A DNA stretch of 63,502 nucleotides, counting the filler, from Olpidium bornovanus S191 (lineage: Eukaryota; Fungi; Olpidiomycota): the NCBI GenBank assembly GCA_017911155.1. It is 28 parts of 28 records of this genome, joined end to end, with 100 filler letters (N's around TTAATTAATTAA, not from the genome) between each part and the next. Parts side by side here need not be neighbours in the genome. Positions count along the whole stretch, not along the records: positions 19,653 to 21,425 come from JAEFCI010003330.1; 27 more parts are not named here. The stretch is one strand, 5' to 3'. Under the pieces are notes generated by a model. The model did not search any database. It was not told where the DNA came from and saw nothing but the letters and a program-made list of their open reading frames with translations. Every line of letters starts with the position of its first letter. The first letter of the stretch is position 1. Below, piece after piece: positions 5,630-57,066 of the stretch. Made by a program: the position numbers and the translations under genes.

Positions 5630-6640
5630 CATGACTGGTCCGTCCGCTCCCTCGATTTCATTACCGCTTACCTGAATTCTCCGTTAGACCGTCCCATTTT
5701 CCTCCGACAGATTGATGACTACGAAGGATTTCCCGATGACGACACCAAGGGCTACCTTCTCCAAAAAGCTCTCTATGGTTTAAAACAATCTGCACGATGT
5801 TGGAATGCTAATTTGGACTCTACCCTCCGCCAACTCAGTTTCCATCCCGTTCGCGCCGAACCATGTTTATACGTCCTACGAAGTGCTCCCCTCTCGACGC
5901 AAGGTGGCACAGACTGATGACGCCGAGAAGGTTGCAGATGATGCTGAGAAGCTCGCATCCACCGATGAATCCGAAGACGATTTTCTTTTTCCCGAATTTT
6001 CTGAATTTGACCCGGCCAATCCCAAGCTCCCTCCTTTTTCTACCATCTCCGTTTTACTTTGCCCATGGGTTGACGATATCGTTCTCACTGGTCCCGCCCC
6101 TGCCTTTCTCGATTCCATCGCTCGCGCACTCCATGACAGGTTTCCTTTGTCAGACGGTGGAGCCCTCACACACATCCGCGGGATAGAAGTGCTCCACGAC
6201 TGCAACGCCAAAGTCTTCCTTCCACAGCGGCAGTACATCGAGCACATCCTCAACCGGTTCAACCACACCAGTTGTCATGCCGATCCTCTTCCACTCAACC
6301 CGTCAGCCATCTCCACCCTACAGAGGACAGATGTTGCTCCAGCAGCCGAGAAAACACGATATGCCGAGCTTATCGGTTCTCTCATTTACCTGTCCACACG
6401 CACCGGTCCGGACATCGCCCCTGCAGTTGGCTTCCTAAGCCGTTCCACAGCCAATCCTTCCGCCACGCATTGGAATGCGTTGAAGCGCATACTGCAATAT
6501 CTTTGTGGCACAACAGATACGGACTCTGTTTTCCGGGGGCGCAATCCACCGACACCACGCCATACATCTGCGCGTACGCTGATTGGGACTGGGCCTCAGC
6601 CTCCGCCATGGCGTCACCGGGACCCTCTCCGCCATGGCGC
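5630..6640 (+). mobile_element. Degenerate Ty1/copia reverse transcriptase to RNase H start (frameshifted)
   Basis: LLQKALYGLKQSARCWN, VRAEPCLY, WVDDIVLTG (YVDD equivalent), YAELIGSLIYLSTRTGPDIAPAVGFLSR, HWNALKRILQYLCGT and AYADWDWA. Confidence 0.92.
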
Positions 6641-10112: not shown

Positions 10113-10355
10113 TCTCTGCCAACCCGGCGCTTGCAATGGGAGGTGATCCACGGCCTTAAACAATTAATTCAGCTGATGAACACCCAAACCCTGAATTATG
10201 TGAAAAACAACAAAAATTACACGCCACACGTTGTATACACTTCTCTGCCAACCCGGCCCTTGCAATGGGAAGATATCTTCTTGAACAATCAATTCAGCTG
10301 ATGACCATCCAAACCCTGAACTATCTAGAATATAATAAGAATTACACGCCACACG
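10113..10355 (+). repeat. Imperfect direct repeat of about 115 bp (10113-10230 and 10242-10355)
   Basis: tctctgccaacccggc...ttgcaatggga...aattcagctgatga...ccaaaccctgaa...aattacacgccacacg occurs twice. Confidence 0.85.
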
Positions 10356-10968
10356 CTGTGCACAACCCCTTTCCCTCATCTGCTTTTACCATACACTAGA
10401 TGGAAATTGCCGTAAAGAACAACCAACAGCGCGCACTGTCCTCGTTTTCGAATTTAGTGCACAAATCTGCTTCCCTTAACTCTTCAACTCCGATTTCGAT
10501 CGGGGAAAAGGTATGTTTGCGCTTCCCTTCTCGCAGCACTGCGTTAACCAACGGGCCGGCAAATGCGCACCGGCATGCACCAGGCACTGGACGCACAATC
10601 CGCCAACTCCTGGGCATTTCTGCCCTGGATCGCAGGCGGCGGGGAGGGGGGAAGGGTGGGGGTGCGGTTCGGCTGTTGTCCTGTTCAGTGCAGCCTCCTG
10701 AAAAGTGTTAACGATTATAGCATTTTGGCGGTTTACCGTCCGTGAACAGTGTGAAACACGACGGGGCTCTGTACGCACAAGCACATCGGAGACAGGATCC
10801 GCAGCGCGAGGTGCTCTAGAGCGATTGTTTGTAGACGGAGACGGGAGGGTTCTCGCTTGCAGGCCCGACTTTCTCATGAACCTGGCTTTTTCCCTGCCAG
10901 GTAAACGCGAGCAACGAGAACGCTCATAAACGAGTTGTTGCTAAAGGGTCCGTGATCGGGACCGGTTC

Positions 10969-12429: not shown

Positions 12430-12750
12430 GGCCATTACCCTCCAGTAGGGTGACAAGCGGCCAAAGCGGTATGGATGTCCGCCTCCTCCCGCTGGTTAAT
12501 CAGTGGCAATATATGGCCAGCAGCTCCTCTCGGTAACACAAACTGCACACACGCTCATGTCGAGCTTATCCGGGAAAACTTCAAAACGGTCTCGTCGTCC
12601 ACCTCCTCCCTCTCATTAAACAGTAGCAATATATGGTCAGCAGTCCTCCACAGCAATACGAATTACGCATGCACTCAATTTGACCTCATTCAGGAAAACA
12701 TCAAAGCGGCCTCGCCGTCCGCATCTTCCCTCTCGTTTATGAATAACAAT
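12430..12750 (-). pseudogene. 120-bp internal repeat, possibly a decayed ankyrin-like repeat ORF
   Basis: Minus frame NEREDADGEAALMFS*...FVLLWRTADHILLLF / NEREEVDDETVLKFSR...FVLPRGAAGHILPLI / NQREEADIHTALAAC, with a 40-aa period and several stops. Confidence 0.3.
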
Positions 12751-19552: not shown

Positions 19553-19651
19553 NNNNNNNNNNNNNNNNNNNNNNNNNNNNNNNNNNNNNNNNNNNNTTAA
19601 TTAATTAANNNNNNNNNNNNNNNNNNNNNNNNNNNNNNNNNNNNNNNNNNN

Positions 19652-19849
19652 NCGCTCTTCCTGTTTCGCCCCACCGCGCGCTTCCTGTTTCGCCCCAACT
19701 CGCGCTTCCTGTTTCGCCCCAACTCGCGCTTCCTGTTTCGCCCCAACTCGCCCCAACTCGCCCCAACTCGCCCCAACTCGCGCTTCCTGTTTCGCCCCAA
19801 CTCGCGCTTCCTGTTTCGCCCCAACTCGCGCTTCCTGTTTCGCCCCAAC
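19652..19849 (+). repeat. Tandem array of the 24-bp unit CTTCCTGTTTCGCCCCAACTCGCG (about 7 copies), including a 4x10-bp CGCCCCAACT expansion
   Basis: Directly visible; the array runs off the contig end. Confidence 0.95.
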
Positions 19850-19871
19850 CTGGCACAGGCAGTTGTCCTAC

Positions 19872-21425
19872 CCTGTAGATCTCTACGGCGATGGTGTCCA
19901 TGTGACAGATCTGCCCGGCGCATCCCACGAGGTCGTCAAGTGCACTGGCTGACGTGTATGTAGCGAGGCTTTCCACGCGGGCTTCGGCCAAAGCGTTCTG
20001 CGCTTGTCGAAGGCCGAGTCTCCCTGCGTCCTCGGCCCAGCTGTCGGCGAGCCCTTCGCGCAGCCAGGCCCCGACTGGCAACCGTAGATATGCCGAAAGT
20101 GGCATTACCTGTCTTCCTGTTGCCTTCCTCATGCCCTCCAGAAACTTCCCTGGACCAAGCCTTCTCATGAGCTGGTCGTCCGCGTGGCGGATAGAGGCGA
20201 ACCGTCGCCAGCTCACGTCGCGGATGTCGTCCGCGAGGCGTGCAAGTATGGTGTTGATGGCACCGTCGTAAGCCTCGGCCGCCTCGACGAATTGGCGCGC
20301 GACGTAAGACAAAGCAGGCCCGTAGGACGACGACGGCGCTCCGGGCGGGACCCATTCCTCATACCATACGAACACCGTCTGCGCAGGTGAAAGGGTTCGA
20401 TGCCCGAGTTGGGGCGAAACAGGACGGGAGTTCGCGGGAATTCGCGGCAGTTCGCGCGAGTTGGGGCGAAACAGGAAACCGTACCTTGACAGGAAAGCCG
20501 CGCACACGTGCCATGAATTGTATCTTGGTCTCCGCCATCGGCGGGAGTGCGGGGAATATGCCGACTAAAGTATCGAACCACCCGGATTCGATCGAAAACC
20601 CAGTCGATATGAGCGGGGTGACAACGAGCACATCGATCATTTGATCGCGCAGCCACCCCGTGGGATCGTCCCCAGCAATGCGCTGTTTTGTAGAGGCGGG
20701 CGACGACCGATGTAGCGCTAGTACCCGGAGGTGCGGAAAATGTGTTCCAATGTACGTCGCGACCGCCTCCAGGCTGGCCACAGTGCCGCACGGGACGAAA
20801 ATCTTTGCTCCTCCTTCCAGGAGGACATGCAGTACTTTGACGGCGTCGTCCGATGTCGGCAGCCAGACGACCTGGTGATCGGTCAAGGCCCCTTCGCCGC
20901 CTTCGTTGATGACCATGCGGGCGCTGAACCTGTCGGCCCAATTTCGCCCGGGGAAGAGCACCTTCAAAGATGGCGGGTCAAGGTCCGCCGCCGCCACCAC
21001 AGTCAACTTGGCCCCGTCGATAATCGTCCGAAATGTTTTTATGACGCTCCTGAGCTGGTCTTGGACGATATCTGCAATATTATGATCCGCCACTTGCCGT
21101 CCTAAATACCAAACACCAATGCCGGTTAAACGGACGGACGGGTAAGCCGCGAGTTGGTGCGAAACAAATGCCGCGAGTTGGTGCGAAACAAATGCCGCGA
21201 GTTGGTGCGAAACAAATGCCGCGATTCACTCGTTTACCCTCGTCGATCGCGACAACCTGCCATCCTTCTTCGCGGTCATCGAGGTGGGGCAGCGAAGTCG
21301 AACAAATTGCGAGATGGCGCGAAGCTCGCATGCGCGCGGAAGCGTCGGCAGGTTCGGGTCCACGTCGCCCACTTCGCATCCACACCGCCCGATCCTTGTC
21401 GGCGGATCGCGAAAGTTCCCGGTAG
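19872..21425 (-). CDS. UL9/origin-binding-protein-like superfamily 2 helicase (Herpes_ori_bp / plasmid Rep-like), truncated at both ends, introns at 21102-21237 and 20379-20484
   Basis: Spliced: YREL...HLAICSTSLPHL...WQVVAIDE|GRQV (Walker B)...VVAAADLD (motif III)...KIFVPCGT (IV)...DVLVVTPLISTGFSIESGWFDTLVGIF (V)...QFMARVR (VI). Intron 1 (GTAAAC...TTTAG, phase 1) and intron 2 (GTACGG...CGCAG, phase 0) both restore the frame. Confidence 0.8.
20405..20478 (+). repeat. Two inverted-orientation copies of the same unit (GAGTTGGGGCGAAACAGGA) flanking three GTTCGCG/ATTCGCG 10-bp subrepeats, inside intron 2 of the helicase
   Basis: cgcgagttggggcgaaacaggaa is the reverse complement of the 19.7-kb unit. 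Confidence 0.9.
21147..21223 (+). repeat. Three tandem 23-bp units CCGCGAGTTGGTGCGAAACAAATG inside intron 1 of the helicase
   Basis: Shares the core CGCGAGTTGG(G/T)GCGAAACA with the 24-bp unit. Confidence 0.95.
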
Positions 21426-21525
21426 NNNNNNNNNNNNNNNNNNNNNNNNNNNNNNNNNNNNNNNNNNNNTTAATTAATTAANNNNNNNNNNNNNNNNNNN
21501 NNNNNNNNNNNNNNNNNNNNNNNNN

Positions 21526-22639
21526 CATGATCACGACGAATCGCCCCGTGAGCACGCTGCGCTGGGCCTGGACGCGGTCCCGGTCCACGGGGTGCTCCGC
21601 CAGGGAGAGCTGAAGGACTTTGCCTTTGACGGAGACCCGGACATAGTTGGGCTTGACCTCCAGCGAGACGAGCGAGGTGTCGATAAACTTGCTGATCTCC
21701 ACCGACAGCACGACGGCCCGGTCTGTGTCCTCGATCCGGAAGGGCACCTTGGGCTCGTTCCGCTGCAGAACGCGCCCGTCGGGCTTTACCAGACTGTCGG
21801 GAGAAGACCGCCGCGGGGGCTTGAGCGGGTCGGGTTTCGACTCCGGCTTGGCCCTTCTCCGGGCGAGCTCGCGCGCCGTCTGCAGTCTGGCTTCAGGCGT
21901 GTGCGGGACAATTTGCGCGGCGAAATCGTCTGTTTCCGCCTGCCGAGGCGCGCACTCGCCGCGAACTCCGTCGTTTCCGGAATCCTCCTTGATCGTGATG
22001 CCGTCGCCGGCCGGAGGTTCCCCCCCGTTTTGCGTCGCCCCGGCGCCGCTCCTTTCCGACCCGCCCGCGCTCGTTTCATCGGCGGGAAACGCGTTCGGAT
22101 CGCCGCTTCCTGCGGTGCTGCAGACGCCGGTGCCGGACGCCCCCTGGGTGTGCTTCAAAGCCCTTTCCCGCAGCAGCCTCTCGCGGACGGCCGCATGTTG
22201 CGGAGCAGCGGCGAGCCGGTGCGATTTCTCGATTTCGCGGCCGTCCAACGACTGCAACGGACGGGGAATAGATTGTTGTTTTTGTCAACGGTCGTAATTG
22301 CAGGCACATCACCGCAAGTGAGAAAAACGCCCTGGCTCTCTCCGCCGCGAAGATCGGACCTTCAGTTGTGGCAAGGCGGTAATCACAAACTCCCGGTAAC
22401 CTTCTTCCGACGCACACGGATTGCCGACCAGAAAGCTTGGTTTTCGTGCCATGCCGTCACGCGGGACGCAGTCAACTATCTTGCGAAACATCCGTCCTGG
22501 GCTATTCAACGCTTCTGGCATGCAAACGGCTGGGGACGGTTGCCACTTACAGTTCCCGCAATTTCGTGCAGGGCTTCAGGGTCTCGACACACAACAGGTC
22601 TTCGACGAAATTGACCGTCAAGTCCAGTTTCCGCAGCGA
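21526..22639 (-). CDS. LRRC6: Dynein axonemal assembly factor LRRC6/DNAAF11 (TilB/Seahorse), internal part
   Basis: SLRKLDLTVNFVEDLLCVETLKPCTKLREL|FLVGNPCASEEGYREFVITALPQLK (LRR plus LRRcap) and GRVLQRNEPKVPF...SKFIDTSLVSLEVKPNYVRVSVKGKVLQLSL...AQRSVLTGRFVVIM (C-terminal CS/p23-like domain). Confidence 0.92.
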
Positions 22640-23344: not shown

Positions 23345-23830
23345 GTGTCGTCAAAAGCAGCGGCGAAAGCGAACGCGGCGGCAAAAAGCGGCGGAAAAGC
23401 GCAGCGGCGGCGGCGGCGAAAAGCGGCGAAGAGCGCAGCGGCGGCGGCGGCGAAAAGCGGCGGAAAAGCGCAGCGGCTGCCGGAAAGCGGCGGCGATGGT
23501 GAGCGGCGGCTGCGGCGGCGGCGGCGAAGAGCGGCGGAAAAGCGCAGCGGCGGCGGCGGCGAAAAGCGCAGCGGCTGCCGGAAAGCGGCGGCGATGGTGA
23601 GCGGCGGCTGCGGCGGCGGCAGTGAGCGGCGGCTGCGGCGGCGGCAGTGAGCAGCGGCTGCGGCGGCGGCGAAAAGCGGCGGAAAAGCGCAGCGTCGGAT
23701 GGCAGATGCGCAGCGGCGGCGAAAAAGCGCAGCGGCGTCGGGAAAAAGCAGCGGCTGCGGCGGTGGCGGCCGGGGAGCTCGGAAAGATGGCGGCTGCGCA
23801 GCTGAGTGAGGGCTGCGGCGGCCGGAGAGG
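23345..23830. repeat. GC-rich low-complexity repeats (GCGGCGGCGAAAAGCG-like) in the retroelement leader
   Basis: Recurrent gcggcggcgaaaagcggcggaaaagcgcagcggc modules. Confidence 0.8.
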
Positions 23831-23881
23831 GAGACGGACGGAGCGCCGACGCGTCAACGGGAGGGGAAGGGGCGTCCCGTT

Positions 23882-23968
23882 GGGCTTATAACCTGTTAAG
23901 TTATGTGTTTTCGCCACGGGGGGCGTTGTATTGTACAGGGGAATTTACGCGTTATAAGGACTGAAACA
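23882..23968 (-). mobile_element. Half-tRNA-iMet-type PBS (GGTTATAAGCCC, 23893 to 23882) directly after a short candidate LTR (TGTTTC...TTAACA, 23968 to 23894)
   Basis: Minus strand ...CTTAACA|GGTTATAAGCCCAAACGGGAC. Confidence 0.55.
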
Positions 23969-24661
23969 TTAAGGGGTTCCGACTAACCGCCGGGGACCCA
24001 AACGAGAAGGAAGAAAAGAAAAGGAGAAATTCCAACAATATTCGCTACGGCGCCGGCCATGGCAGCCGCGCCTTGGCCACGAGATCAGGTCACCATGATT
24101 GGCGAGCGGCGCACGGCGGTGGCGGCGACGCGCAGCGGCGGGCGCGCGGCGGTGATGAGCGGCCGGCGGCGGCGACTGCGGCAATGGCGCAGCGGCGACG
24201 GCGCTTGCGCGGCGGCGGCGAGGCGGGCGCGCAGCGGCGGTGAGCGCCCGGGGGCGGTGGCTGGGGCGGGCGCGCAGCGGTGACGGCGGTTGTGCGGATG
24301 GAGGGAGCGCAGCTGCGGGGGGGCGGCGGCTGCGGCGGGCGCGCGGCGGCGGCGGCGGGTGCGTGGATGGAGGGAGCGCAGCTGCGGCGGGGTCGTCAGA
24401 GTCCCGTTGGGCTCATAATCTTTCGTTTGGTTTCGCCTTTTGTTTTGTATTTTCCGCTCCTGGGGGTTTCTCGTTGTCCTCGATTACAGGCCATATATGA
24501 CGACACCCACAGCTGCCCGTTCTAGCCTGCCGAAATCCCGTCGGAGACGAAAGTCACCCGACACCGGGCAATATGCACATGACGGGATCAAATTATCACC
24601 CTTGCCATTGCCTTTGCTGCCGGCGTTGCCGGCACGACGTCCCCCACCTGGCCGTGAGAGG

Positions 24662-25417
24662 TCAGTCCTGCCCTTTTCCTTTTGACTTGCCCTTAGACGA
24701 TTTGCCGTTGGTCGGAGCGGCGTTCGCTGATGCAGGCGGGCGATTGTCACTCTTGTCTGGCTTTTCTGTCCCAATCGCTTTGCCCATACGGAGGGCGATC
24801 GACTGCAAGTACTCCATCGATGAACGATGAGTCGGATCCGAGAGTACTGCTATCTTGACCCGTTGATCCAATCTGTTGATGTATGCTTGCTTCACCAGCG
24901 ACTCCGATACGACTCCCTCCAGCGAGATTGCCAGCTTGTTAAAGGAGAGATTGTACGCATGGACCGATCGAGACTTCTGCTGGCACGCATGAAGTTTCTC
25001 GTAGGTATCAAGTTCAAAGTCCGGAGGTAGGAACTTTGAGCATAGAGCCGCCTTGAAGTCGTCCCATGAGCGAATGCGCATGGGATCGTCGTTCGAGTAC
25101 TTGCGCTTGTTGCTGATGTACAGCGAGTGCGCGTCACCGATCAAATTCTGGACGGCAACTTGCAGGTAAAGTTTGGAAGGTAGATTCATGACTTTTTTTA
25201 AAATCCTTGAGCTTCTCCTCGAACGCCAGAAGCCGTTGCTGGCTGCCAGCGCTGTCGTACGGGTTGATGTCTGCGAGCATTGTCTTGCCTGCATCGCGTA
25301 TCGCCCGTGCGCGCTCTTTGTCGATTGATCTGCTGCGAGATCGATGCCGACTTGATTTTTTGTCGCGAGGTCTGCACCGGCGATCGGCAGATCTTGTGTC
25401 TGAATCGGGTCCATCAT
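24662..25417 (-). mobile_element. Ty3/gypsy Retrotrans_gag ORF (ends prematurely)
   Basis: AVQNLIGDAHSLY...IRSWDDFKAALCSKFLPPDFE...KLHACQQKSRSVHAYNLSFNKLA...LVKQAYINRLDQRVK. Confidence 0.88.
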
Positions 25418-25518
25418 TGCCTGATGGATCAGACGGATCGGGGCTTGACGAACGACGACCGCGATGACCCTCGGATTTGAATGATCTCAGGGATCCAGAG
25501 GTTTTGATTGAATGTGAG

Positions 25519-26858: not shown

Positions 26859-28244
26859 NNNNNNNNNNNNNNNNNNNNNNNNNNNNNNNNNNNNNNNNNN
26901 NNTTAATTAATTAANNNNNNNNNNNNNNNNNNNNNNNNNNNNNNNNNNNNNNNNNNNNCCTCCCCTCCCCTCTTCGGTCGAGCTGCGTCTGCCAGCCCGC
27001 TTTCCGCTCCCGCTCCCCTCTTCCCTTCTTCTCCATTTTCTTCCACACTCCCCTCTTTATTTCTGTTCTCCTCTTTTCAACTTTCTTTTCCCCATATTTT
27101 TTTTATTCTTTTTTCTTTTCTTTTTTTGTTATTCTTTCTTTCCTTTTTTTATCTTTCCTCTCTTTTCTTTCATTTTTCGTTTTTCGTTTTTCGTTTTTCC
27201 TTTTCTTCTTTGTTTGCTTTTACCGCTCTCTTCCTGTTATTTTTCTCTCTTGGAAGAAAACAGTCGGGGGAGAAAATCTTCGACGTCCGGCGTGGGAGGA
27301 AGGAAACGTTAGCACAAGGAGACTATGACGAAGCATTCCGCTCAAAAGAAAAATAAAACCCATCGACCAGTCTGGCTGGGAAGGTCGAACAAGCCTTCAG
27401 GACCGGCAATGGGCTCTAAAAACCAAAGTCGGCGCGGGGGACGTTGACAAAACGGGGAACTCCTGCGTTTTGAAAACTCCGTCTTTTTTTTGCTTGGTGC
27501 AGATACGTGATACTTTTTTTGACTTCGGCGAAACGGGACGGAGCTTCGCTTTTTTGTTTTCCTTTTTTTTTCCCTAAAAACGATGGAACCGAAACGACGG
27601 ACTGCCAGACCTACTTTTGCTTGAATCTTGCGTCGAAATGATACACCGTTTGCAAAGGCAGCTCAGGCAGTACTAATGGACATTTGAGTGGCGGTGGTCG
27701 GTCGAATGAAAAAGGGAAGAAAGGAACGGAGGGGGGGCGGAGTCGGTTAAAGTATGCGGGACAGCCTTGCCGATCATTTCGTTATTGAACGGGGGGCGGG
27801 AGTTGCCCACTTGAGGGAGAGGCGCTGGGCCGCGTCGAACGCGGGTGTGTGTGTGTGGGGGGGGGGGGGGGGGGGGGGGGGTTTTCCAACGAGAGGGGGG
27901 GGGGACAAAAAAGGCTCCGTGCGGGCGCCCCGGCCCCCCAGGGCAAGAAATTGCCCGACAACCCGCCCCCTCGCGACATTCCCCGCTTAGTCGAGGGACA
28001 TGTTGCAAACTATGAATACGCAAAGGAGGGACCNNNNNNNNNNNNNNNNNNNNNNNNNNNNNNNNNNNNNNNNNNNNTTAATTAATTAANNNNNNNNNNN
28101 NNNNNNNNNNNNNNNNNNNNNNNNNNNNNNNNNCGCGATCAAATCGGTGGTGTTGTGATCTGATTTTTCCCTTTTTTACTGTTTCGTCGGACGGAACGCT
28201 CCCCCGCTGGCAACCGGTTGCGTTTCCGAACGCGGAACGAACAG

Positions 28245-28899
28245 GCGAGACATGGAACGTGACCAAGATCGGCTATCAGCTGAAGCAGGTGCGGGAACGG
28301 CTGGCCAAGGGCCTGGTAGATAAGGGGGTGCTTCGGACGGAGAAACGCAACTTCCTCCTTTTCGATATGGCGACGCACCCGGTGGCGGACTCCAGCGCGA
28401 AGGAGGAACTGGTGCGGCGGGTACGCGAGACGCTCCTGGCGCGGCATCCGCCGCCGCGAGCACACAGCGTCCGAGAGAACCTGGCGCGCTTACGGACGGT
28501 GTCGGCGGTGTGCGCGTCGTACGCGGCCAACGTGCTCGACAACGCACTTTCTGGGCTGCCCCACGATGCGCGAGAGTACGCGTATTCCCGCGTCGACGAG
28601 ACGCTCGCCGAGTACTCGGTCTGGCCGCCTGGCAGCGGCGACACTGCTTACGGCGGCAGAAACGAGAGCGCGACGATGGGCGACGGTGAAGACGCCGAGA
28701 AGGTGGGGAGCGGAAGAGAGGTCGTCAGCGCCGTTCTGTGCGTTTTCACAAAGGTGCGTACCCGGATCGTTTGGACATCCCCGCACGCCCTGCGTACGGC
28801 GCTGCCGTCCGAAAATCGATCGGCGACTGCGCGTTGACACTTGGGTTTTGGCACGGCCTTCGTTTGAATCCCCCGCGACAAAAGATGGACAGCTTGTGA
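28245..28899 (+). CDS. VPS74: Golgi phosphoprotein 3 / Vps74, C-terminal exons (28245-28753, 28885-28899)
   Basis: GETWNVTKIGYQLKQVRERLAKGLVDKGVLRTEKRNFLLFDMATHPVAD...CASYAANVLDNAL...VFTK|MDSL*. Confidence 0.95.
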
Positions 28900-29374: not shown

Positions 29375-32300
29375 ATGACATCGCCGGCGCCCGTCCAGAT
29401 CACGCCGTCGCGCCTTGCGTTGCGCTACGAGGTTCCCGCCCTGTACTTGGAGTACACCCTGCTGGACTCTGGTACAGTAGTCTATGCAAGCGGCCGCAAC
29501 GCAAGTTGACGAGTGCCGGACCGAGAAAAAATAACGAAAAAGCGCAAACTGGGTCTTTTCTCCGCCCTTTCTCTTCCCGTCCCCCGCACCCGTCCCCGTC
29601 CCCGTACCGTCGTCCGTTTTGACGTTTTAACGCCTTGCCTGCCCCGCCCTACCACTCGCCCGCAGCGCTCGAGGAGCATCGCCGGCGGCGGAAGATCCCG
29701 CTCCGCGGCCTGGAGGCGTCCCTGCGGGCCGACGGCAACGTCAGCGCCTACTCGCTTGCGAGCGAGGTCCTCGACCGCCACCGGCCGTACCTCGAAAAGG
29801 TCCAGTTCTCGCAGCTCGAGCGCCTGGTCCAAACGATCATCGACAAAACCGCCGTGCGCGTGCTCTTCGCCGAGAAGAGTTCTCGCAAGTTCCAGCTCGC
29901 CGGCGCGGGGTCGGCAGCGGCGGCGGATTCCACGGAACGGCGGCCGGACGACGGGGACCCGCGCGGTCCAGGAAGGCCGCCGGGAACCGCGGCGCCAAGG
30001 GTGGGAGTGTCCCCCGGATCGCCCCGCGGCGTTGTTGATCATAACAAGCAGCCCTGCGGCGTCGCGACGCCCGGCGCTTCCGGTGACGCTTCCGCCCCGC
30101 CCGGTGCCCCGGGGCGACAACCGTTCGGCCCCGCGAAGTCGTTCGATGCCGGCGGTCCGTGGCTTCCGCAGGGAGAGCCGCCGCCGCCGCCCGCGGCTTC
30201 CCGCGGCGAACGCCCCTTTCCGTCGGCGGTGGGGGCGGAGGCGGCGCCCGCCGGCGGCGAACTCTTTTCGCCTCTCTTTCCCGACTTCGGGGGCGCCGCC
30301 CGAGAGGGAACACCCGGGACCGCCGCTGCCGCGACCGCCGCCGGGGGACCAGACGATAAGGTGCGGGGCCGCCCGCCGTATCTTTTGATCTGAAAGTCGG
30401 AAGAAAAAACGAAAAAAGGCATGGCTAAAAAAAAAAAGAAAGAAAGAAACGAAAGCAAGCTCAGATCCGGTTCCCCCCTTGTGGAACTGCGCCCGCGAAA
30501 ATTTCGCAGCTTATGGAGGTCAGCCCACCCGCGCGGTCGACAAACCCGTTTTGGTCGGGTTCGGCGTCGGCCGGTGCGACGAGCGCAGAGAAGACGATTC
30601 TCACCACGGTCACGAAGGACACCGATCTCAACAAACTGGAGTGCGTCTTCCCCCCCCCCGTTTTATCCAGAATTATTTTTTTGGCTACTCCGACATCGAC
30701 GCGCGGTCCGCAAAAAGGAGCCTTGTTTTTATCATTCGGCGCTGATTCGTTTTATTTTATTTTTTTTTTTGACTGGCAGTGATCGGGAGTTGACGCTTGT
30801 GAAAAGCCAAATGGAGTCGAGTTTCCAGAAGAACAGGCTTCTTCCCACGGACGCCGGGTACGTGTACGACAAGGAAGTCGAGTTCGGACCCTCCGACCGA
30901 GCTTCTGAGTGGGATGACGAGCCGGTTACTTCCGCTCCGGCGGCACCCCAGGCGGGCTTCGCCAAAACGAACCCCTGGTTTGGGGGGACTGCGGCCCTTT
31001 CGGCGGCGCCGACGGCCCTTCAGGTTATGCCGCCGTCGTCTCCCAATCAGCAACCGATAATGCCCGTGTTGGCCGGCGGGTGGACGGCACCGCGAGGACG
31101 CCTGCCGAGCCTGCTGGAGACGCCCCGCGAAGACACGAGCCGAGAATCCATCCCCGCGGAAGTCCAAGGGGGGGAAGCCGGGGAGGAGGATCCGAATTCC
31201 ACCCTGGAAGATTCGGTCTCGCGGGGCCGGCAGGCGCCGCCGCGTGAAGGGCCCCGCGGGGCAGAAAACGCGCCGTCTCCGTCACCGCCGCCGCCGCAGC
31301 TGCCGCCGCCGGCAGTAAGCCGGGAACAAACCGGCGAGACGGACGCCGCGGCCGCGGAGGATGATCTGGACATCGACGACATCCTGGAGGACGACGACGA
31401 TCCGCGCCAAAAGCGCGGCGCGTCGAGCCGGAGCGTGCTGGACGCTTCGACTGTAGATTTGGGGCGAGCGGATAAGGCCGGGGACGCCGCCGACGACGAC
31501 TCCCTTCGCCGACGTCCGAGCAGCGAGGAGGAACTGCGCGGCTGGAGGCGCGGCTTTTCCGAAGACATCCACGCTTCGTCCTCGCGTGACCTCGGCGCCG
31601 CCGGAAAGCGGCCGGACGTCGGCCGTCGCGGGCTCTCCTCGGGCTCGCTGCGTTCCGAGGGGCAGAGCGGTGCTGCCGAAACGGCGGCGACGGCGACGGG
31701 GAGCGGCAGCCGCCGGACATCGCTGGAGTCCGTGAAATCAGAAGGCGCGGCGGCGACCCCCCGCTGCCCGCCGCCGGAGCGGAGCAGGTCAGCGGGCGAC
31801 GTCGTCGCCTCCGGGGAGGCGACGCCGAGACCTGCGAGCGGGTCGGCGGGCAAATTGCACAAAGGGGCCGGGTTGGAGGACAGCATCTACCTGTCGACCG
31901 AAGACTCTTTCCCGGCGGCGGAGGAGGAAGAGGAGGAGGGGGCGGACGAGAGTGTCAAGGAGGAGCTGGCGAAATTTGCGTTTCCCGAGGGAAGATCGGA
32001 TTCCGTCCGGAACGAGGAGGACGATGACGAGGACGGAGCGCGCCGCCCGCCGGCGGCGGCAGAGAACCGAAGGCAGGACGGCGGACACCCGGGACCCGGG
32101 GCCTCCTCCTCCTCCCGGCACGACCGAGCGGAGAAGGCGGACGCGGCCGCGGACGAGGCCGACGACGACTTTTCCTTCCCGCAGAAGTCTTGGAACCCCG
32201 CCACCGCCGAGCGGCAGGCGTCGTCGCCTCCGGCAGCCAAGGGGCCGGAGCAGGCCGCCGCCGCTGCCGCCGTCGCCGTCGCGGAGGCTCCCGACGCGTT

Positions 32301-33959: not shown

Positions 33960-36755
33960 ATGGCTGCCGCTCCCGCCGCGCCCGCCGCGCCCGCCGCGCT
34001 GGCGAACGCCTCGGACGACGCCGGCGGCAGTTTCGTCGGCGAAGCACACGGAGGAGCCGGGCACGGAACGCGGCCCGCTGAAGCCCGCGATAAAATGGCG
34101 GGCGTCCCCTCGACGCCCGCCGAGCCGCCGGCAGACTCGGGCGCAGGCGCTGCCTCTTCCGCGTCCGCGCCTACCCGGACGAGCGCGAGGATCGCTCAGA
34201 ACAACACGCGCAAGAGGAAGGCGGAGGAACAGCGCGCCGCGGAAGAAGCCTCTGCCGCCCGGGTGCCGCCTCAGAAAAGGCGAAACGGGCTTGCCTCGCC
34301 CTCCAAAGCCAAACCGGCGTCAAAGAGAGGTACCCGGGCCAAGGCGCAGGCTGAACAGACGCAAGATACGCCACGGGCGGGAACGGGCGGAGGCGTGACC
34401 GCGAGCGCTGCGACCGTCGCGGCGCCCGCCACCATTGCTGTCGCGAGAGCGGTCGCCACCGCGAATGGAGTAGGGGAGCAAGCCGGCCTGAAAGGAGAGC
34501 TCGGAGAGACGGAATTGCCGGTGAAGAAGGACAAGGGCAAGCAAGTTGACCGTTCCGGTGAGCCGTCTTCGTCGAGGTCGCTCTATGTCCTCCCACGCTT
34601 GCATTTCTGGCCGGCTGAACGGTGCCCTCTTAGGCTTTGGCGAGGACATGTCTTCCCCGGACTCGCCGGATTTCGAACCTTGTCTTTCGAACTACATCTA
34701 TGACCCGATCGACGAGAGCCCCATAGACGAACTTGCGCAAGACGCTGACGCAGAAGAAGACGAGGTACTCGGTAACTGGTGGATTTTTTATCCTGACCGC
34801 AGGCCTGTGATGAAGCCTTGCCCGGAAAACCCAGAGCTCAGCATGTCCACCGCAGCTGCCGCCTATCATAGAGCGGGACCTCCATCGGGCCAGCCAGCAG
34901 GTCCCTCTGCGGGACCGTCTTCTGCAGGCGATGTGGGCGGAGATGTGGCTGCCGAAAGCGGGGTTGACGTGAGCGACGGCGTGAAGCACACCGACGAGCT
35001 TTTCGTTTGCGATATGCAAATTAGTATGAAGGCCAAGCTACGCCGGGACGAGATGGATGATTGCGAAATCTTCAAGATGTACAAGCTGTCCGTAGCACGG
35101 TAGGGAACATGCAAAAAGTTTTATGAAGCTTTCCTTGTTTTTGATGGACCTTGAACAAGTATATACCTTCTCTCCGTATTGTCACCAGTCCGAAGATTGA
35201 GAATGAGCGTTATGTTTACGAGTACGGCAACCACCGGAAGCGAGAACATGTCACGTACGAGTTGCCCACAAATTTCTGGATCAGCCGGATTGAAAGCCAG
35301 GACGAGGATCTCCCGGAGATCACGAATGCGGATTTCTCACATTTGGAGGCTGCTGACCCATACACAAACGCGAAGGTGAAGTCGGCAACCTATTCCTTCA
35401 ACCGGGCTGCGGAAACGCAGGACAGCGACGGCTTCGTGACCAGGGAAGAGCGGAATATCGAACGAGATCTCCTTGCCAGTTACATGCTGTACGTGCGCAA
35501 AACAAGAAGGCTGGTTCCCTTTGAAGCGCATAGTTACCCACCGCCATCCAACCTCGGGGATACTGCCCGCCGGTTTTTTCGCGCAGTCGTTCGGCCTTAC
35601 GATCCGGACGTTGCTGAAGACTACGGCCCGTGCCGACCCGACAAGGATATGCGCACCGTATCTCTTTATCTCCGCTCAAAGTTATTGAACCAGGCCATCC
35701 GCCAGGGCGCCAACATTAAACACGTCGCGAGTGTACTTTCCGATTATCTATACCCTGTCATCAGTGGTAGCATTTCGCGGCACCTGTACGTCCTCTCAGA
35801 TACCACTTCCGAGCCTGAAAAATCACCTCCGACCGGGTTCGCTTTGGAGCTGTACGACTATCAGAAGCGAACCTTGAATTGGATGATGCGGTTGGAGAAT
35901 GACGAGAGGGAGACACTGGAGATTCGACGCTTTTCCGCCCCCGACATCAACAAGGAGGTACTGAAGCTGGGCCCCTCAGGGTGCTACTTCTACCCAAAGG
36001 ATCGTCGGTTCACCGTACGGAACCACTGCGACGCCCGACCGAGCGACGTGAAACGCGTCCGCGTCCGCGGTGGCTTAGTCCTCGACAGTGAGTCTTCCGT
36101 ATACGTTTTGATGATGATCACGTGGGAATTGTGCGCCTGAAGACGCGTATCCGCTTTTCTAGAGGTCGGCTCCGGAAAAACCGTTACTCTGCTCGCGCTA
36201 ATACACTCGAACCCGTTCAGAAGCGTTCGGAACATTCCTTGGAAGCAATCCCAGGACCGTGAGCTTTACCTTCCGGCCCGCGGCAGCCTGGTGATTGTGC
36301 CCGCGAACCTGGCCACGCAGTGGTCGATGGAGGCTCGCCGCTGCCTGCCTCCACAGACGAAAGTCATCTTGCTCACGACAATGGTCGAATATCGGAAGAT
36401 TTCGTGGTCCGACCTGCTCCTCGCGGATCTGGTTATCGTCACCCTTCCCTTCCTCCAGAATCCGACGTACCGTGCAAGGATCGCGCAGATTGCCGGGCAA
36501 TCCGCCTACAAAATATCCAGCAAGTACAGCAGACGTAGCTTATATCATAACTTGGATGCTCAACAGTTCACGCGCGAGCTTGACCGGATGATGCTCGCGC
36601 TGACTTGCCAGGGGCGGGCCCAGTTTGGCGGGAGGAGCAATTGCTGTATAATAGAGCGGGTGCATTGGCACCGGATTGTCATCGACGAATTCCACGAACT
36701 GGGAAAGAACTCGAAGGTGTGGTAGACAGTGACTTTTCATTAGCGCGGAATGATG
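33960..36755 (+). CDS. SNF2-family ATPase, Rad5/Rad16/SHPRH-like, N-terminal part, 3'-truncated
   Basis: LYDYQKRTLNWMMRLE (Q motif), RGGLVLD|EVGSGKTVTLLALIHSN (Walker A), GSLVIVPANLATQWSMEA (Ia) and WHRIVIDEFHE (Walker B). Joining the upstream exons from 33960 is less certain. Confidence 0.85.
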
Positions 36756-37443: not shown

Positions 37444-38732
37444 ATGGAGTACGTGTTTCCTGGTTTCTTTTCCCGTTTCCGGGGACCCTCCTTTGGGAAG
37501 GACGACGAGGTCCCGTTTCCGGGAACCCTCCTTTGGGAAGGACGACGAGGTCCCGTTTCCGCCCGTTTCCGGGGACCCTCCTTTGGGAAGGACGACGAGG
37601 TCCCGTTCCCGCGGAGCGCCAGAGTTTAGCGTCGGTTCCCGTGGAAGGAAGCGGGGTGGGGAGACTCTTGCGGTGTTCAATTTCTTTCCTACGACGCTGG
37701 CGCCCAGCCCTGCGTGTTATCGTCGACATGTTCAAGCTGCGGGGCCCGCGCTGTCTCATCTCGGGAAAGACGCTTTCGGCCGCGCCGAACGCCGGGGCGG
37801 GGCCCAGTTTCTTCCCGCTGTCCTCGAACGCGCGGAATTTCGCCCGCTGCGGGTGGCAAGTCAGGCGAACTGCCTACTTTTGCTTCAATACGTTCTGACC
37901 CCCGCCGTCTTTTCGTGCCTTTCCCTCGCCCATTGTTACCCCGAAGTTTCCAAAACCGTGCGGGCAGCAAGGTTTGGTTTCGTCGGGTTTTCTTTTCCCT
38001 TTTTTTCGGCTGTAAACCTTGTGCTGGTTTATAATTGTTAGATGCTGACCCCGCACGTACCTGCCCGTGTTTTGTCCGACTGTAGCCCGGTTCCGCTGGC
38101 GTGGCCGGTCATTCCGAGAGCAGCCTCGATCGTCGGGAACGTCTGCGGAGACTGGCGCTGGAAGTGATCAACCTGGAGACCGACCCGTATTTCATGAAAG
38201 TACGCGATCCCGCAAACTGTAACGCGCCGCCGTCTCTCGCTCGCTGAGCGCCTTGTTTGCTTATCCCGTCTCTGCTTCGCAGAACCATTTGGGGTCTTAC
38301 GAATGCAAGCTCTGCCTTACCTTGCACACGAACGAGGGAAGCTACCTTGCCCACACTCAGGGCAAAAAACACCAGACTAATCTTGCGCGGCGCGCTGCTC
38401 TCGACGCCAGATACCGTGACTCGGCGCTGCCGGCGCGGCCGGGGATGGGGTCGGGCTCACTGACGGTGAAGAAGAACATCATTAAGATTGGTCGCCCGGG
38501 TTATAAGGTCACCAAGGTGCGCGATCCGGCCACACGGCAGGTCGGCCTGCTCTTCCATATCCAATACCCCGAGATGAACGTGGCGGATGCTGGTCATCCG
38601 CGTCACCGGTTCATGTCTGCATACGAGCAGAAGGTAGAGCCTGCCAACCGGGCCTGGCAGTACCTCATCTTCGCGGCGGAGCCGTACGAGAACATTTCCT
38701 TCAAGATTCAGTCCCGCGAGATAGACAAATCC
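37444..38732 (+). CDS. SF3A2: Splicing factor 3A subunit 2 (SF3a66/Prp11), 3'-truncated; coding exons 37444-37448, 37947-37971, 38086 onward, then a further exon from about 38283
   Basis: MD|FQNRAGSK|PGSAGVAGHSESSLDRRERLRRLALEVINLETDPYFMK|NHLGSYECKLCLTLHTNEGSYLAHTQGKKHQTNLARRAA...IGRPGYKVTK...PRHRFMSAYEQKVE. Confidence 0.96.
37472..37609 (+). repeat. Three 40-bp tandem units CCCGTTTCCGGGRACCCTCCTTTGGGAAGGACGACGAGGT in SF3A2 intron 1
   Basis: Units at 37472-37511, 37512-37551 and 37562-37601, with a 10-bp partial unit before the third. Confidence 0.95.
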
Positions 38733-42723: not shown

Positions 42724-43190
42724 TATTTTTTTGCGACGGCGCATCTTCTTTTTTTGCCGACGGCGCATCTTCTTTTTTTTGCGACGGCGCATCTTCTTTT
42801 TTTGCCGACGGCCCCCCTTTTTTTTTTTGCGACGGCGCATCTTCTTTTGACGGGCGCATCTTCTTTTTTTGCGACGGCACATTTTCTTTCTTTTTGCGAC
42901 GGGCGAATCTTCTTTTTTTGAGACGTGCGAATCTTATTTTTTTTGCAACGTGCGCATCTTTTTTTTGCGACGTGCGCGCGCGCGGAAATTAATTTTTTTT
43001 TCGATGCGCATATTTTTTGCCATGCGTGCATCTTCTTTTTTTGCAACGGGCGCATCTTCTTTTAATGGGCACATCTTCTTTTGACGGGCGCTTCTTCTTT
43101 TGTTTTGGCGAGGGGCGCCCCTTCTTTTTTTTTGCGACGGGCGCATCTTCTTTTGTTTTGCGACGGGCGCATTTTTTTTTCGGCGTCAGC
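42724..43190 (+). repeat. Degenerate 22-24-bp minisatellite, consensus GCGACGGCGCATCTTCTTTTTTT, roughly 20 units
   Basis: Directly visible; a GC box alternates with a T-tract. Confidence 0.9.
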
Positions 43191-46616: not shown

Positions 46617-48475
46617 CATGCTCGCTTGATGGGAAGCCTTACGTCCTTCGAAGAATAGAAGGTAAGGCCCTGGTAGGCTTTTGTTAGAATTTGGCGCGGC
46701 TGGAATTTTGTTTGCCGCGTCGCCCATTATCTGACGCTGTGCTGTCCGCCGGAACGGAAAAAGGATACCGATTGACAAACGAGGCGGCGATGACGCCTGT
46801 TGAGAACTGGCGGAGAATACGGCACGCGAACATCGTTTCCTTGCGAGAAGCGTTCACCAGCAAAGGCTTTGGCGATAACTGTACGTCGGCCGTGCTTAGT
46901 TGACAGATGTTTTCCTCTGCGTGCAAAGTGTCGACGTCGAGCAATGATGACCCCCCGTTTCTCTCCGCGCACAGCCCTCATCCTCGTTTATGACTACCAT
47001 CCGTGTTCGACTACACTGCTGAATAAGCATTTTGTCAACCCTCTTGTGCCAGCGGCGTCGCCGGCGGCGGCCGCCGCACCTGCCGTCGGCTTCACGCCCG
47101 GGGCAGTGAAGGCAGCCATCCCGGTGCAGCAGCACCGTGTGAGACTCATATCCGGAGGCATGGAGCCGGCGTCCGACGAGGAGATAGGCCCAGGCGGCGG
47201 CTTGTCGGAGAAGGTCATTTGGAGTTACGTGACGCAGATCGCTTCGGCAATCAAGGTTACGCACGCCGCCGGGTTGGCTTTGAGGACAATAGAGCCAAGT
47301 AAAATTTTGCTAACGGGAAAGAACAGGTGGGGACGGTGCGCTGTTCGGTGTTTCTTGCGGCTTTTCGTCGACGTGCGATTTTTTCCTTGGTGGTCGCCTG
47401 AGGGGGACATCGTCCACCATCTTAAGGGAAGGGGGGCCACATCATCTGCCATGCCGCGCCGATCTTCTTTTGCGTTTTGTCCGTTGGTCCGCGTTTTGCT
47501 GATGAGCGGCGCCGAAAATTTTATGCGCAGACTTCGGGTTAATTGCGTGGGGGTCTTCGACCTGATCAACTACGACGGCGGCAAGAACCAACCGCATTTC
47601 CAGCAGGAAGACCTCCTGAACTTTGGGCAGCTGATACTCTCGCTGGCTTGCCTGTCGCTCACCGCCATCCACAACCTCCCGAAATCCCTCGACTACATAA
47701 CGCGCTTCTACTCGATGGATCTAAAGAACGTCGTGCTGTACCTACTCAGCAAGCCCTCGCCGATGAAATCTGTCGACGACGTGGTGGCGATGATGGGCAC
47801 GCGGATACTGCACGAGATCGACAGCGCACACTAGTTGGGTTCCGTTTGATGGCGGCTTTTCGCGGCGTTCGTTTTCGGGCGCTTTCCTGGCCGAGCCAGG
47901 CGAAAGTCAGCCCCCTCGTTTCGCTGCTCCGCCTGACCGCCCTCCACGCGCACGTCCCACAATCCATTTATTTGCATGCTGTGACGCGCAGCTACAACGA
48001 TTTTTTGGAAGATGAGTTGTGCCGGGAGTTGGAAAACGGTCGGCTGGTACGAGTGCTGTGCAAGCTCGGCTTCATCAACGAGCGACCGGAGTAAGTCCTT
48101 TTGATCAATTTTTATTTCAACCATCTATGACACACACGCTTTACCCACCTTTTTTCTTTTCTCTCCCGCTCTCTCTCTCCTTTTTTTTCCCTTTGTTCTG
48201 CAAGGTTCGACCTCGACCCGTCGTGGTCTGAGACCGGCGACCGATATCTTTTGAAGCTCTTCCGCGACTACCTATTCCACCAGGTGGACGAGCGGGGGAG
48301 GCCGGTGCTCGACATGGCGCACGTGCTCGGGTGCCTGAACAAGCTGGACGTCGGAGTGGACGACCGCGTGATGCTGGTCAGCCGAGACGAGCAGAGCTGC
48401 CTCATCGTGAGCTACCGCGAGCTGAAGAAGTGCGCAGAGGTAGTATGGAGGGACCTGTTCCGTAAAGCCGTTTGA
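46617..48475 (+). CDS. PAN3: Poly(A) nuclease subunit Pan3 (pseudokinase plus C-terminal knob), 5'-truncated
   Basis: [12 protein letters not shown]|YRLTNE...[17 protein letters not shown]...LVYDYHP...[12 protein letters not shown]...[12 protein letters not shown]|RLRVNC...QQEDL...[22 protein letters not shown]|...[23 protein letters not shown]...LNKLD...[12 protein letters not shown]. Confidence 0.97.
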
Positions 48476-52614: not shown

Positions 52615-54822
52615 CTACTGTCGGCGCTGGGAGTTGTACTGTTGCTGCTGTCCGTTGTACGGCTGCTGGTTTTGGCTGCGGAACTGCTGCTGGGGGCCGC
52701 GGTACTGTTGCTGCTGCTGGCTGGAATACTGCGGCTGCGGATGGTGGTTATTCTGTGGCTGTCTTTGTCGCTGTTGGTAATGCCGCGACGGAGGCAACTG
52801 TTGCTGTACTTGCTGTTGCTGCGGCGGCGGCTGCGGCTGTTGCGCCGGCTGCGGCTGGGGGTGAGGGGGCTGGGTCTGCTGGGACGGCTGAGACGGCTGG
52901 AGCGGCTGCTGCTGCGGCTGTGGCGGCTGCCGGGGCCGCTCCTGCAGTTTATTGTTTGCTTCACCATCCGCTTGGTCTATAGACGACGGGGCAACGTAAA
53001 GTCGCTTGTCGATAACGGCGGGAATTGGGCGGATCTCCGTGCCCAGCTCCTGCTCAATTCTGTAGAAGTTGAAGCGGTCATCGTACGTGATGAGGTTGAT
53101 GGCCAGGCCGAGGTGCCCGAAGCGGCCGGAACGGCCGATGCGGTGCAGGTATGTCTCAGCATTCTTGGGAAAGTCAAAGTTGATGACAACGTTGACAGCT
53201 TGGATATCGATACCGCGGGTAAGAAGATCTGCAGACAAAAGTTAGATGTCGCGAAAGAACCTCGTTAGCGGTCAACGAATACATCACGGAAGGTAAATGA
53301 TGAACAATTGCAATTACAAATGAGCCGGGAACGAAGTGCGATACGACGCTACCACATACCGGAACAGACGAGATTGCGGCACACACCCCTACGGAAATCG
53401 TGGAAAACTCTATTGCGGTGAGTTTGGAGCATCTTGGCGTGGCTGTAAAAGCATGAGTAGCCCAACTCCGTGATCTTTTTCGCGAGCAGTTCCACGCGGT
53501 TCGTGGAATTGCAAAAAATAATCGACTGGTTGATTTGCAGCTGGAGTCGAGAAGTGGCAACAGGGAAGACTCAGCAACCGGCCGCATATCACAAAAGGAC
53601 ATCAACGCCAAATGTAAACAACCTTAGAGAACAGCGTGTTCAGACAATGGACTTTTTGCTTCTCCTCGACGAAAGCGTAGTACTGAGTAACACCGCGCAG
53701 CGTGAGTTCATCCATGAGGTTGATCTCGTACGGATTGTTTAGGTGTTTCTCCTTGAATGAGCGCACAATCATTGGGAACGTGGCGCTGAACAGCATGACT
53801 TGGCGGTTATTGGGGAGGAAGCTGATGAGCTGATCGATAATAGGTGAAAATTCCGGGGCGAGAAGTTTGTCTGCCTCATCCATGACGAATGTGGTGCACT
53901 CCGACAGATCGGCAATTCCCTTGATAGCAAGATCCAGAATGCGACCCGGCGTCCCCACCAGGATGTGCACGGTGCCACCCAGGCGCATAATGTCGTCTTT
54001 AAGGGTGGTGCCTCCGGTGGTCACCATCACGTTCACTCCGCAGTGCTTCCCCAGCCTCCGGCAAACTTGCGACGTCTGAAGGGCGAGCTCCCTCGTCGGC
54101 ACAAGTAGCATAGCCTGAATTTTATCCTTCTTAGGGTTGACTTTCTCGAGAACGGGTATGACAAACGCCGCTGTCTAGCAGCACACGCCGTCCGCAAACC
54201 GTATATCAGAGAAAGGGCGACGAACGGAGCCGGAACTGAGCCAAAGGCAGAATTGAAGTTCCATCTACCTTTCCTGTTCCATTTTTGGCTCTCGCTAAAA
54301 TGTCGCGTCCACTCAACGCTATGGGAATCGCTTCTTCCTGAATGGGAGATGGTCTTTCGAAGCCCGCCTCAAAGATCCCCATCAGTAGTTGACGTTTCAC
54401 GTAGTAGTCCTCGAATTCGTGTCCCTTGGTAAGGGTGACATCCTAGCGATAAACGGAAACCGGCGACGCAATGTATTACCGCCCAAATTCCAGGCGGAAC
54501 ACCAACGTTGGCGAAAGCGTGTCACCAAAAAAAGCAAGGAACGGGACCCGTAGGGTCGATACGGGAACAAGAAAAAACGTGCAGGCAAGTACGCCACAGC
54601 GGCCCATCGCACCTCGGTTTGCGGTCTAGTGTCTTTCGCGGGAAGTCGCAGGTTCTTTTTCCACCTGTCGTCCTGATGACTGTGCGAACACGCAAAACAC
54701 GGTGGCGCAGTAAACGCCCGAAATGGAATAAGATTTAGCAGCGGCGACGCGGGCATTATAAAGACTTGAAGCAAGAAACTTCACCTCATTTGTTGCCTGC
54801 CTGCAGAACCATCGAAAGCCAT
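52615..54822 (-). CDS. DHH1: DEAD-box RNA helicase Dhh1/DDX6, apparently complete, multi-exon
   Basis: [13 protein letters not shown]|[22 protein letters not shown]|...[14 protein letters not shown]...ARAKNGTGK|TAAF...VPTRELALQ...MDEADKLL...FSATFP...[20 protein letters not shown]...[38 protein letters not shown]. Confidence 0.98.
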
Positions 54823-56616: not shown

Positions 56617-57066
56617 CCTCCGGCGCCAGTTCAACAATTTCCTTGGCGCTTCTTCCCGCGACATGGCCTTGCTCCGCCGAGTCCGGGCCGCGCGGAGCGG
56701 TCGACCCTTACCGGAGCAGTGTCTGGTGATAGCCGGCGGCGAGGGCGAGCTCACGCTGCGCCTCGCCAAGCAGCTCCGGCCCAAGGAATTCGCTTTCGAC
56801 CTGCCACAGGTCGATCCCACGGCTGCCCCGCGAGACGTCGAGATATTCGGGGTGATCCCCCGGACGCCGTCGCCGGCGGACGACGAGCAAGCGAAGGAAG
56901 AGCTGGTCTCCCTCGGCCGCCTGCAATACGACACCGCGGCTTCCAGCGCGCAAAGATACGTCTTGGAACTCCGCGACGGCGAGAGGGAGTTCGAAGTGAT
57001 CCGGATCAGGATCAAACAAGGGAACCCGCTACAGACGCACCTATGCAACGCTTTACTCTACGACTG
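56617..57066 (+). CDS. Internal exon of an unidentified protein
   Basis: Open frame ...EQCLVIAGGEGELTLRLAKQL...RYVLELRDGEREFEVIRIRIKQGNPLQTHLCNALLYDW ends at the donor gtgagc; codon usage is GC3-rich. Confidence 0.55.

Follow-up and report, generated by a model that had tools for sequence, protein, structure and literature searches.

The helicase gene described here lies on a contig of 1773 bp (19653–21425), part of a window of 63 502 nucleotides from Olpidium bornovanus. The window is made up of 28 contigs of 1.0–4.4 kb separated by 100 nt spacers of N around TTAATTAATTAA; the adjacency of contigs in it is meaningless, the gene is alone on its contig and the rest of the window is unlinked to it. 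Its features are collected in Table 1.

Table 1. Features of the helicase contig and its flanking spacers (positions are those of the whole window).
Feature	Position	Strand	Description
Artificial spacer	21426..21525	.	Upstream DNA unlinked to the gene
Exon 1	21238..21425	-	RecA1 part to Walker B (DE); truncated by the contig end
Predicted intron 1	21102..21237	-	GT-AG (GTAAAC...TTTAG), 136 nt, phase 1, branch-like TTAAC at -28
Repeat array in intron 1	21146..21224	-	3.3 identical 24 bp units
Exon 2	20485..21101	-	Motif III (AAD), clade-specific INxGGxG stretch, RecA2 with motifs V and VI (QxxARxR)
Predicted intron 2	20379..20484	-	GT-AG (GTACGG...CGCAG), 106 nt, phase 0
Repeat units in intron 2	20402–20424 and 20454–20477	-	Two units
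Exon 3	19872..20378	-	Helical region past motif VI; homology to about residue 367
Stretch omitted in X3	20283..20364	-	82 nt, GT-AG, branch-like CTTAC
3' tail	19653..19871	-	Begins GTAGGA; possible intron 3 or UTR; reaches the contig end
Repeat array in 3' tail	within 19653..19871	-	About seven units, inverted with respect to the intron copies
Artificial spacer	19553..19652	.	Downstream DNA unlinked to the gene

Excision of the two predicted introns leaves a frame of 437 codons free of stops, running from 21424 to 19872 on the minus strand. The other five frames contain 5–16 stops, and none of 2000 base shuffles was stop-free. The junctions were compared with in-frame GT/GC-AG alternatives no more than 90 nt from each site, using a profile built from homologues only; that of intron 1 ranks first of 69 and that of intron 2 first of 30. 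The alignments to P0005, P0006 and P0012 cross junction 1 without a gap, as those to P0011, P0005 and P0012 cross junction 2. When the exons are searched separately every one matches homologues, in collinear order; exon 1 alone matches P0006 (E = 3.7e-4) and the alignment of P0016 begins at its first codon. The initial annotation had proposed that removal of two GT-AG introns restores a single open frame, and the proposal holds.

Motifs are named according to the SF2 helicase numbering. All of those listed at the outset are found, and in the order given for them. Walker A (motif I) falls upstream of the contig edge and is present in the relatives P0005, P0006, P0009 and P0012. At the other end of the gene the final 70 or so codons of exon 3 cannot be aligned to homologues, and from motif VI onward the protein has 181 residues compared with 416–439 in relatives. 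The frame does not close at 19872 but runs on into the repeat, and the tail is open in essentially all of its three frames; the 3' boundary placed at 19872 is therefore a guess based on a GT donor.

The host reference was a DHH1/DDX6-like DEAD-box gene elsewhere in the window (53174–54442, minus strand), whose introns measure 94, 82 and 131 nt and are all GT-AG. The predicted introns of the helicase gene are similar to these in size, and the GC content at the three codon positions of exon 2 is 0.63/0.44/0.68, compared with 0.57/0.34/0.68 in DHH1. The feature observed is an intact helicase gene fragment, split by predicted introns, and it had been read correctly.

The 24 bp repeat and the public read contigs

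A matrix of the 24 bp repeat gives 12 matches of 36–48 bits on the contig, compared with 7 bits for the best match elsewhere in the window and a range of 3–11 bits for shuffled sequence. The two introns share a repeat core of 17–19 nt only and their ends differ; an introner origin was rejected because they are not alike from end to end. A telomeric reading of the tail was likewise set aside, as degeneracy is greatest in the distal units and the introns contain this unit too. A likeness to Box I of HSV-1 oriS (a 7 nt overlap) was rejected as post hoc and close to chance, 284 of 5000 shuffles giving the same. A 20 nt pattern of the repeat has no match in the viral_contigs set; its eight matches in metagenome contigs are single, with no tandem copy and no encoded relative, and are treated as chance. 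An Rfam scan of the window gave no match. A second tandem array with a 24 bp period (19–26 bp), of about 18 degenerate and T-run-rich units at 42726–43180, scores nil on the repeat matrix.

The intron and tail copies are complementary, with predicted duplexes of -141 and -147 kcal/mol, the latter for intron 2 paired with the 3' tail (shuffled mean about -94 kcal/mol, minimum about -111 kcal/mol). Pairing of this predicted kind might allow exon 3 to be looped out of a transcript.

Three public sequencing runs (X1, X2 and X3) contain small shares of the locus; none of the listed holders is marked as RNA, which counts neither way. Run X1 yields several variant repeat contigs with depths of up to 11, compared with 2.7 for exon 2, a weak indication, from contigs only, of further loci. 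In X3 one contig, at a depth of 2.3, still has the 3' portion of intron 2 but lacks an 82 nt stretch of exon 3 (Table 1). This is the only joint present in the public data and it differs from both predicted junctions. With intron 2 wholly retained the X3 form stays in frame and scores 242 bits, compared with 265 bits for the predicted splicing. The X2 contig crosses 19871 unspliced. Should X3 be RNA, it would show that the locus undergoes transcription and splicing, in that molecule otherwise than predicted.

Among related ORFs, P0001 ends two residues past junction 2 and P0002 at the tryptophan that coincides with the X3 donor; P0011 and P0005 read through. These ORF ends suggest that intron states may differ between close relatives. 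The position of intron 2 is probably common to the window gene and a relative of 57–59% identity.

Helicase family, fold and relatives

Exon 2 matches the CyRepA1 profile (NCBIfam NF042913) with E = 8e-17 and 61 bits, below the cut-off of 200 bits; full-length P0005 (88 bits) and P0012 (46 bits) also score below it. The profile phrog_4913, labelled 'replication', is matched with E = 3e-7. The match to Pfam Herpes_ori_bp (PF02399) has E = 0.068 and 11.7 bits, under the gathering score of 20, which the relatives P0006, P0082 and P0083 exceed at 23 bits; Helicase_C is matched with E = 0.072. Sequence matches include 18 cyanobacterial plasmids, with a CyRepA1 annotation on 13 of the 15 rows listed, and RepA of the Halomonas phage phiHAP-1, with plasmid and phage identities of 25–29% over exon 2. 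In the top ESM-Atlas clusters 27–30% of members carry Herpes_ori_bp, and profile A7 weakly recovered UL9 chains (E = 3.6–9.6) as its only helicases. A further profile comparison was left out of account as circular, with P0006 entering on both sides. A sequence search of the PDB with exon 2 gave no match; a word-seeded protein search gave none among the longer proteins with exon 2 as the query and one bacterial-type protein with alignment A2.

Structures were predicted for exon 2 (pLDDT 63) and for the relative P0081 (pLDDT 69). The top viral Foldseek matches of the exon 2 model are the ASFV helicase/primase protein and the origin-binding proteins (OBPs) of EEHV and of a Pyramimonas virus. Against the PDB the top Foldseek matches of this model are of SNF2 type; in a ranking by Z, UL9 comes ninth in a tie less than 1 Z wide that includes the top match. 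The P0081 model places HSV-1 UL9 (9hgi) first, with Z = 16.6, an r.m.s.d. of 5.5 and 368 aligned positions covering UL9 81–534, the next match having Z = 13.1. It also matches giant-virus origin-binding helicases with E = 1e-16 to 1e-13. On the side of the relatives, the predicted P0081 model decides the matter in favour of a UL9-type helicase fold. UL9 has a C-terminal origin-binding CDD/SAP domain, according to the available text of PMC13483431. The contig itself lacks this domain. Residues 454–760 of P0081, modelled as part of the longer protein, do not align with the C-terminal domain of 9hgi, which is no sign that such a domain is absent.

With its motifs in order and with the UL9 match of P0081, the window protein belongs to the broad group of UL9-like SF2 helicases. 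The initial annotation had placed it in a UL9/CyRepA1-type family: the CyRepA1 profile, the plasmid matches, the Atlas clusters and the viral Foldseek matches bear out the broad family, and neither best profile hits to cellular DEAD, RecQ or ResIII helicases nor signs of a bacterial contaminant were seen. Membership proper of either named family was too strong a claim, the scores lying under both curated cut-offs. For the window protein, read from sequence, the term origin-binding is best taken as a family label.

A phmmer search of 1.84 billion representatives gave 77 matches. The closest relatives are Logan ORFs (59 and 46% identity), followed by an O. bornovanus protein (39%). Organisms were looked up for 29 proteins; the other named members of the clade come from Jimgerdemannia flammicorona (1447 residues) and Globomyces pollinis-pini, so that the three named among the 15 clade rows besides the window are all from early-diverging fungi. 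The Jimgerdemannia protein already bears the automatic name 'replication origin-binding protein domain-containing'. A first tree, with 81 rows, places the window gene in a clade of 16 (SH-aLRT 100) and a second, with 47 rows, in one of 15 (support 100/100); from the latter we use the clade and not the deep branching, the outgroup rows P0043, P0049 and P0061 being mis-trimmed. A phylogeny had been proposed as a check, and it gives the gene a well supported clade of its own. In both trees this clade stands apart from groups that we label CyRepA1-like and AEP-UL9 viral-like, labels assigned in this analysis to trees without named viral sequences, and its sister group is not settled by either. The clade is very patchy: of the 80 proteins collected by searching 1.84 and 5.8 billion sequences, 15 belong to it besides the window gene. 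One subclade contains at least six versions of about 53–60% identity, several of them partial, and in the Olpidium-like subclade two versions are only about 38% alike. P0005, P0006, P0008 and P0081–P0087 form a subclade of AEP-zinc finger-UL9 proteins of 53–65% identity, among them a single piece of 1419 residues on a 32 kb contig; P0005 is encoded on a contig of 32 kb, P0006 on one of 14.5 kb and P0081 on one of 11 kb.

Residues 60–370 of P0005 resemble AEP_C962R clusters of Nucleocytoviricota (ESM-Atlas 0.96), with weak profile and motif links besides; the AEP domain of the relatives has no sequence match in Pfam or the PDB. Four clade members carry a CPxH...CxxC zinc finger. An N-terminal primase had been suggested for the missing part of the gene. 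Such a domain is indicated in full-length relatives; in the window gene that region is off the contig.

In their arrangement of AEP, zinc finger and UL9-like helicase the full-length members of the clade agree with the AEP-SF2 primase-helicases of Nucleocytoviricota and mriyaviruses, a layout described in the available text of 10.1101/2024.02.29.582850 for mimivirus R8, ASFV pF1055L and yaravirus SF2 helicases. Giant-virus proteins, including those of Marseillevirus and the Bodo saltans virus OBP, are the best structural matches of the clade models. The clade differs from the viral AEP-SF2 proteins in its separate position (100/100), in its own INxGGxG stretch, in its predicted spliceosomal introns and in the absence of viral neighbours on the contig. 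With herpesvirus UL9 it shares the helicase fold (as modelled for P0081), a motif II that is not DEAD/DEAH and a QxxxRxR motif VI; motif II is DEG in the window protein and DEVM in UL9 (PMC13483431, as far as its text is available), and the AEP domain carried by the relatives is missing from mammalian UL9 (10.1101/2024.02.29.582850, likewise in part). CyRepA1, the best-scoring profile for the window gene, differs by its sub-cut-off score, by the absence of DUF3854 from P0005 and P0012 and by the eukaryotic introns.

Origin and possible role of the gene

Our preferred reading, held at about even odds, is that the window gene serves the replication of a virus-like DNA element which resides in the nuclei of early-diverging fungi. 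An endogenised virus, plasmid or mobile element had been proposed from the start. The helicase family and the AEP domain of the relatives favour that proposal, but the 1773 bp contig offers no element context, since it carries no capsid, integrase, transposase or terminus. Three further points speak for a resident element. Firstly, every characterised relative is a protein of a virus, phage or plasmid. Secondly, the clade has many divergent and often partial versions, as would be expected of a multicopy element, and the intron states of relatives seem to differ. Thirdly, the repeat is confined to this contig within the window and its depth in X1 exceeds that of exon 2. Against it we also count the sister group left open by the trees, the X3 joint, the small number of named members and an exon 2 model that is not specific to UL9. 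Five protein scans of viral_contigs (IMG/VR) and one each of metagenome and genome contigs also found no relative, a weak result as exact short peptides were required.

Such an element would have its gene expressed by the host polymerase II and spliceosome. The protein would hydrolyse ATP to open and unwind the origin of the element, and the AEP domain would lay primers for host polymerases. The introns may have been acquired after entry into the fungal lineage, with the 24 bp repeat as sequence that travels with the element.

A less likely alternative is a domesticated host gene, in which an anciently captured viral primase-helicase now serves fungal DNA repair or repriming and has ordinary host introns. 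A long-resident host gene fits equally well with the codon GC of exon 2 and the intron sizes, because both are host-like. The frame is intact, members come from three fungal lineages and the position of intron 2 is probably shared with a close relative. The very patchy spread of the clade argues against domestication, as do the many divergent and partial versions and the apparently unlike intron states of close relatives.

The gene may instead be an orphan relic of a giant-virus (Nucleocytoviricota) insertion, a reading that we think about as unlikely. Introns and minisatellites would have been acquired once the virus had integrated, and the gene would by now be in decay or cut short by the repeat array. 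Insertions of this kind with introns are on record, in the available text of the papers concerned, for Rhizophagus (22 intron-bearing genes; PMC10640383), zoosporic fungi (PMC13533422) and Chlamydomonas (PMC9693826). The structural matches to giant-virus OBPs, the loss of homology in the last 70 or so codons, the inverted repeats through which intron 2 might base-pair with the tail and the non-canonical X3 form would all suit a relic. Against it, the 437 codons contain no stop or frameshift although the closest relative is more than 40% divergent, and both trees separate the clade from the AEP-UL9 viral-like group. The endogenous giant viruses of fungi (the Rhizophagus GEVE, Mycodnaviridae and fundsviruses) likewise place viral replication genes in early-diverging fungi, some of them intron-bearing (PMC13533422, PMC7017919, PMC10640383). 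In the available text of those papers, however, the markers are PolB, D5, MCP and SFII and not a UL9-like AEP-helicase, and no hallmark gene is linked to the gene studied here. Further literature, also available in part, is given in 10.1101/2025.04.19.649669, PMC12166617, 10.1101/2023.10.09.561360 and PMC4889955.

It is very improbable that the contig is foreign DNA assembled together with that of the fungus, whether of a free, nucleus-replicating and intron-bearing virus or of some other eukaryote. The contig is unlinked to host genes, and intron-rich nuclear viruses do exist in the mirusviruses (PMC12768974); the composition is nonetheless host-like, a fungal assembly is the source of the most similar named protein and a term search of the main text of that paper found no UL9, helicase, primase or fungi. 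An ordinary cellular DEAD, RecQ or SNF2 helicase, or a contaminating bacterial plasmid whose 'introns' arose by chance, is hardly credible. The exon 2 model alone resembles generic SF2 RecA2 domains and the E value for Herpes_ori_bp adjoins that for Helicase_C, but the position in the clade and the alignments that cross the junctions without a gap largely refute this reading. The CyRepA1 profile, Atlas clusters, viral Foldseek matches and P0081–UL9 match oppose it as well, and the scan of prokaryote genome contigs, weak as it is, found no relative.

Herpesviruses, giant viruses, mriyaviruses, phages and cyanobacterial plasmids are the known sources of UL9-like initiators. If the window gene does belong to a resident virus-like element, a fungus-associated clade with intact genes and predicted introns would point to a DNA virus-like or plasmid-like lineage in chytrids, Olpidium-like fungi and Endogonales. 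The clade would then be a marker, besides PolB or MCP, for finding such a lineage, and it would offer a case of a viral gene gaining introns independently in related copies. An isolated giant-virus relic would be an ordinary example of a known process. More speculatively, and in our view improbably, the clade could represent an unrecognised family of nuclear, spliced and self-replicating elements with an AEP-zinc finger-UL9 initiator, in which the intron and tail repeats act as an iteron-like origin bound by that initiator; the origin would then be stored within the introns of its own initiator gene. What is new here is the host group and the form of the gene, undescribed in the literature searched, whereas the kind of protein is already known. 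Our searches, with most subscription papers outside their coverage, found no description of this fungal clade.

Other contigs in the window

A domain scan of 90 ORFs selected from the 560 in the window identified further genes. A CS domain of DNAAF11 (21526–22284, minus strand) and a CEP19 domain (30394–30920, plus strand) represent flagellar and centriolar genes, and a GPP34/Vps74 piece (28136–28834) matches yeast Vps74 with E = 1e-33 and human GOLPH3 with E = 2e-19. Together these genes point to what is likely to be a zoosporic fungal host. A Pan3 piece (47543–48472) matches 4bwp_A and 9qtu_A best (E = 7e-33 and 3e-32), above eight other entries, and leaves the kingdom undecided. There are also pieces of SNF2 (35145–36722), SF3A2 (38223–38732) and a SUN-domain protein (56618–57067), together with the N-terminus of an SMC protein (60284–60643).

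Retroelements are represented by a Ty3-type gag/capsid domain (24665–25486, minus strand) and a Ty1/copia-type reverse transcriptase split over two frames (5630–6300, plus strand). A degenerate GCG-rich satellite (23353–24392) lies beside retrotransposon-like sequence. Two tandem duplications of about 120–125 bp (10113–10359 and 12477–12734) occur on the same contig as a Ypi1 domain, and many of the contigs in the window end in long homopolymers of G, C, A or T.
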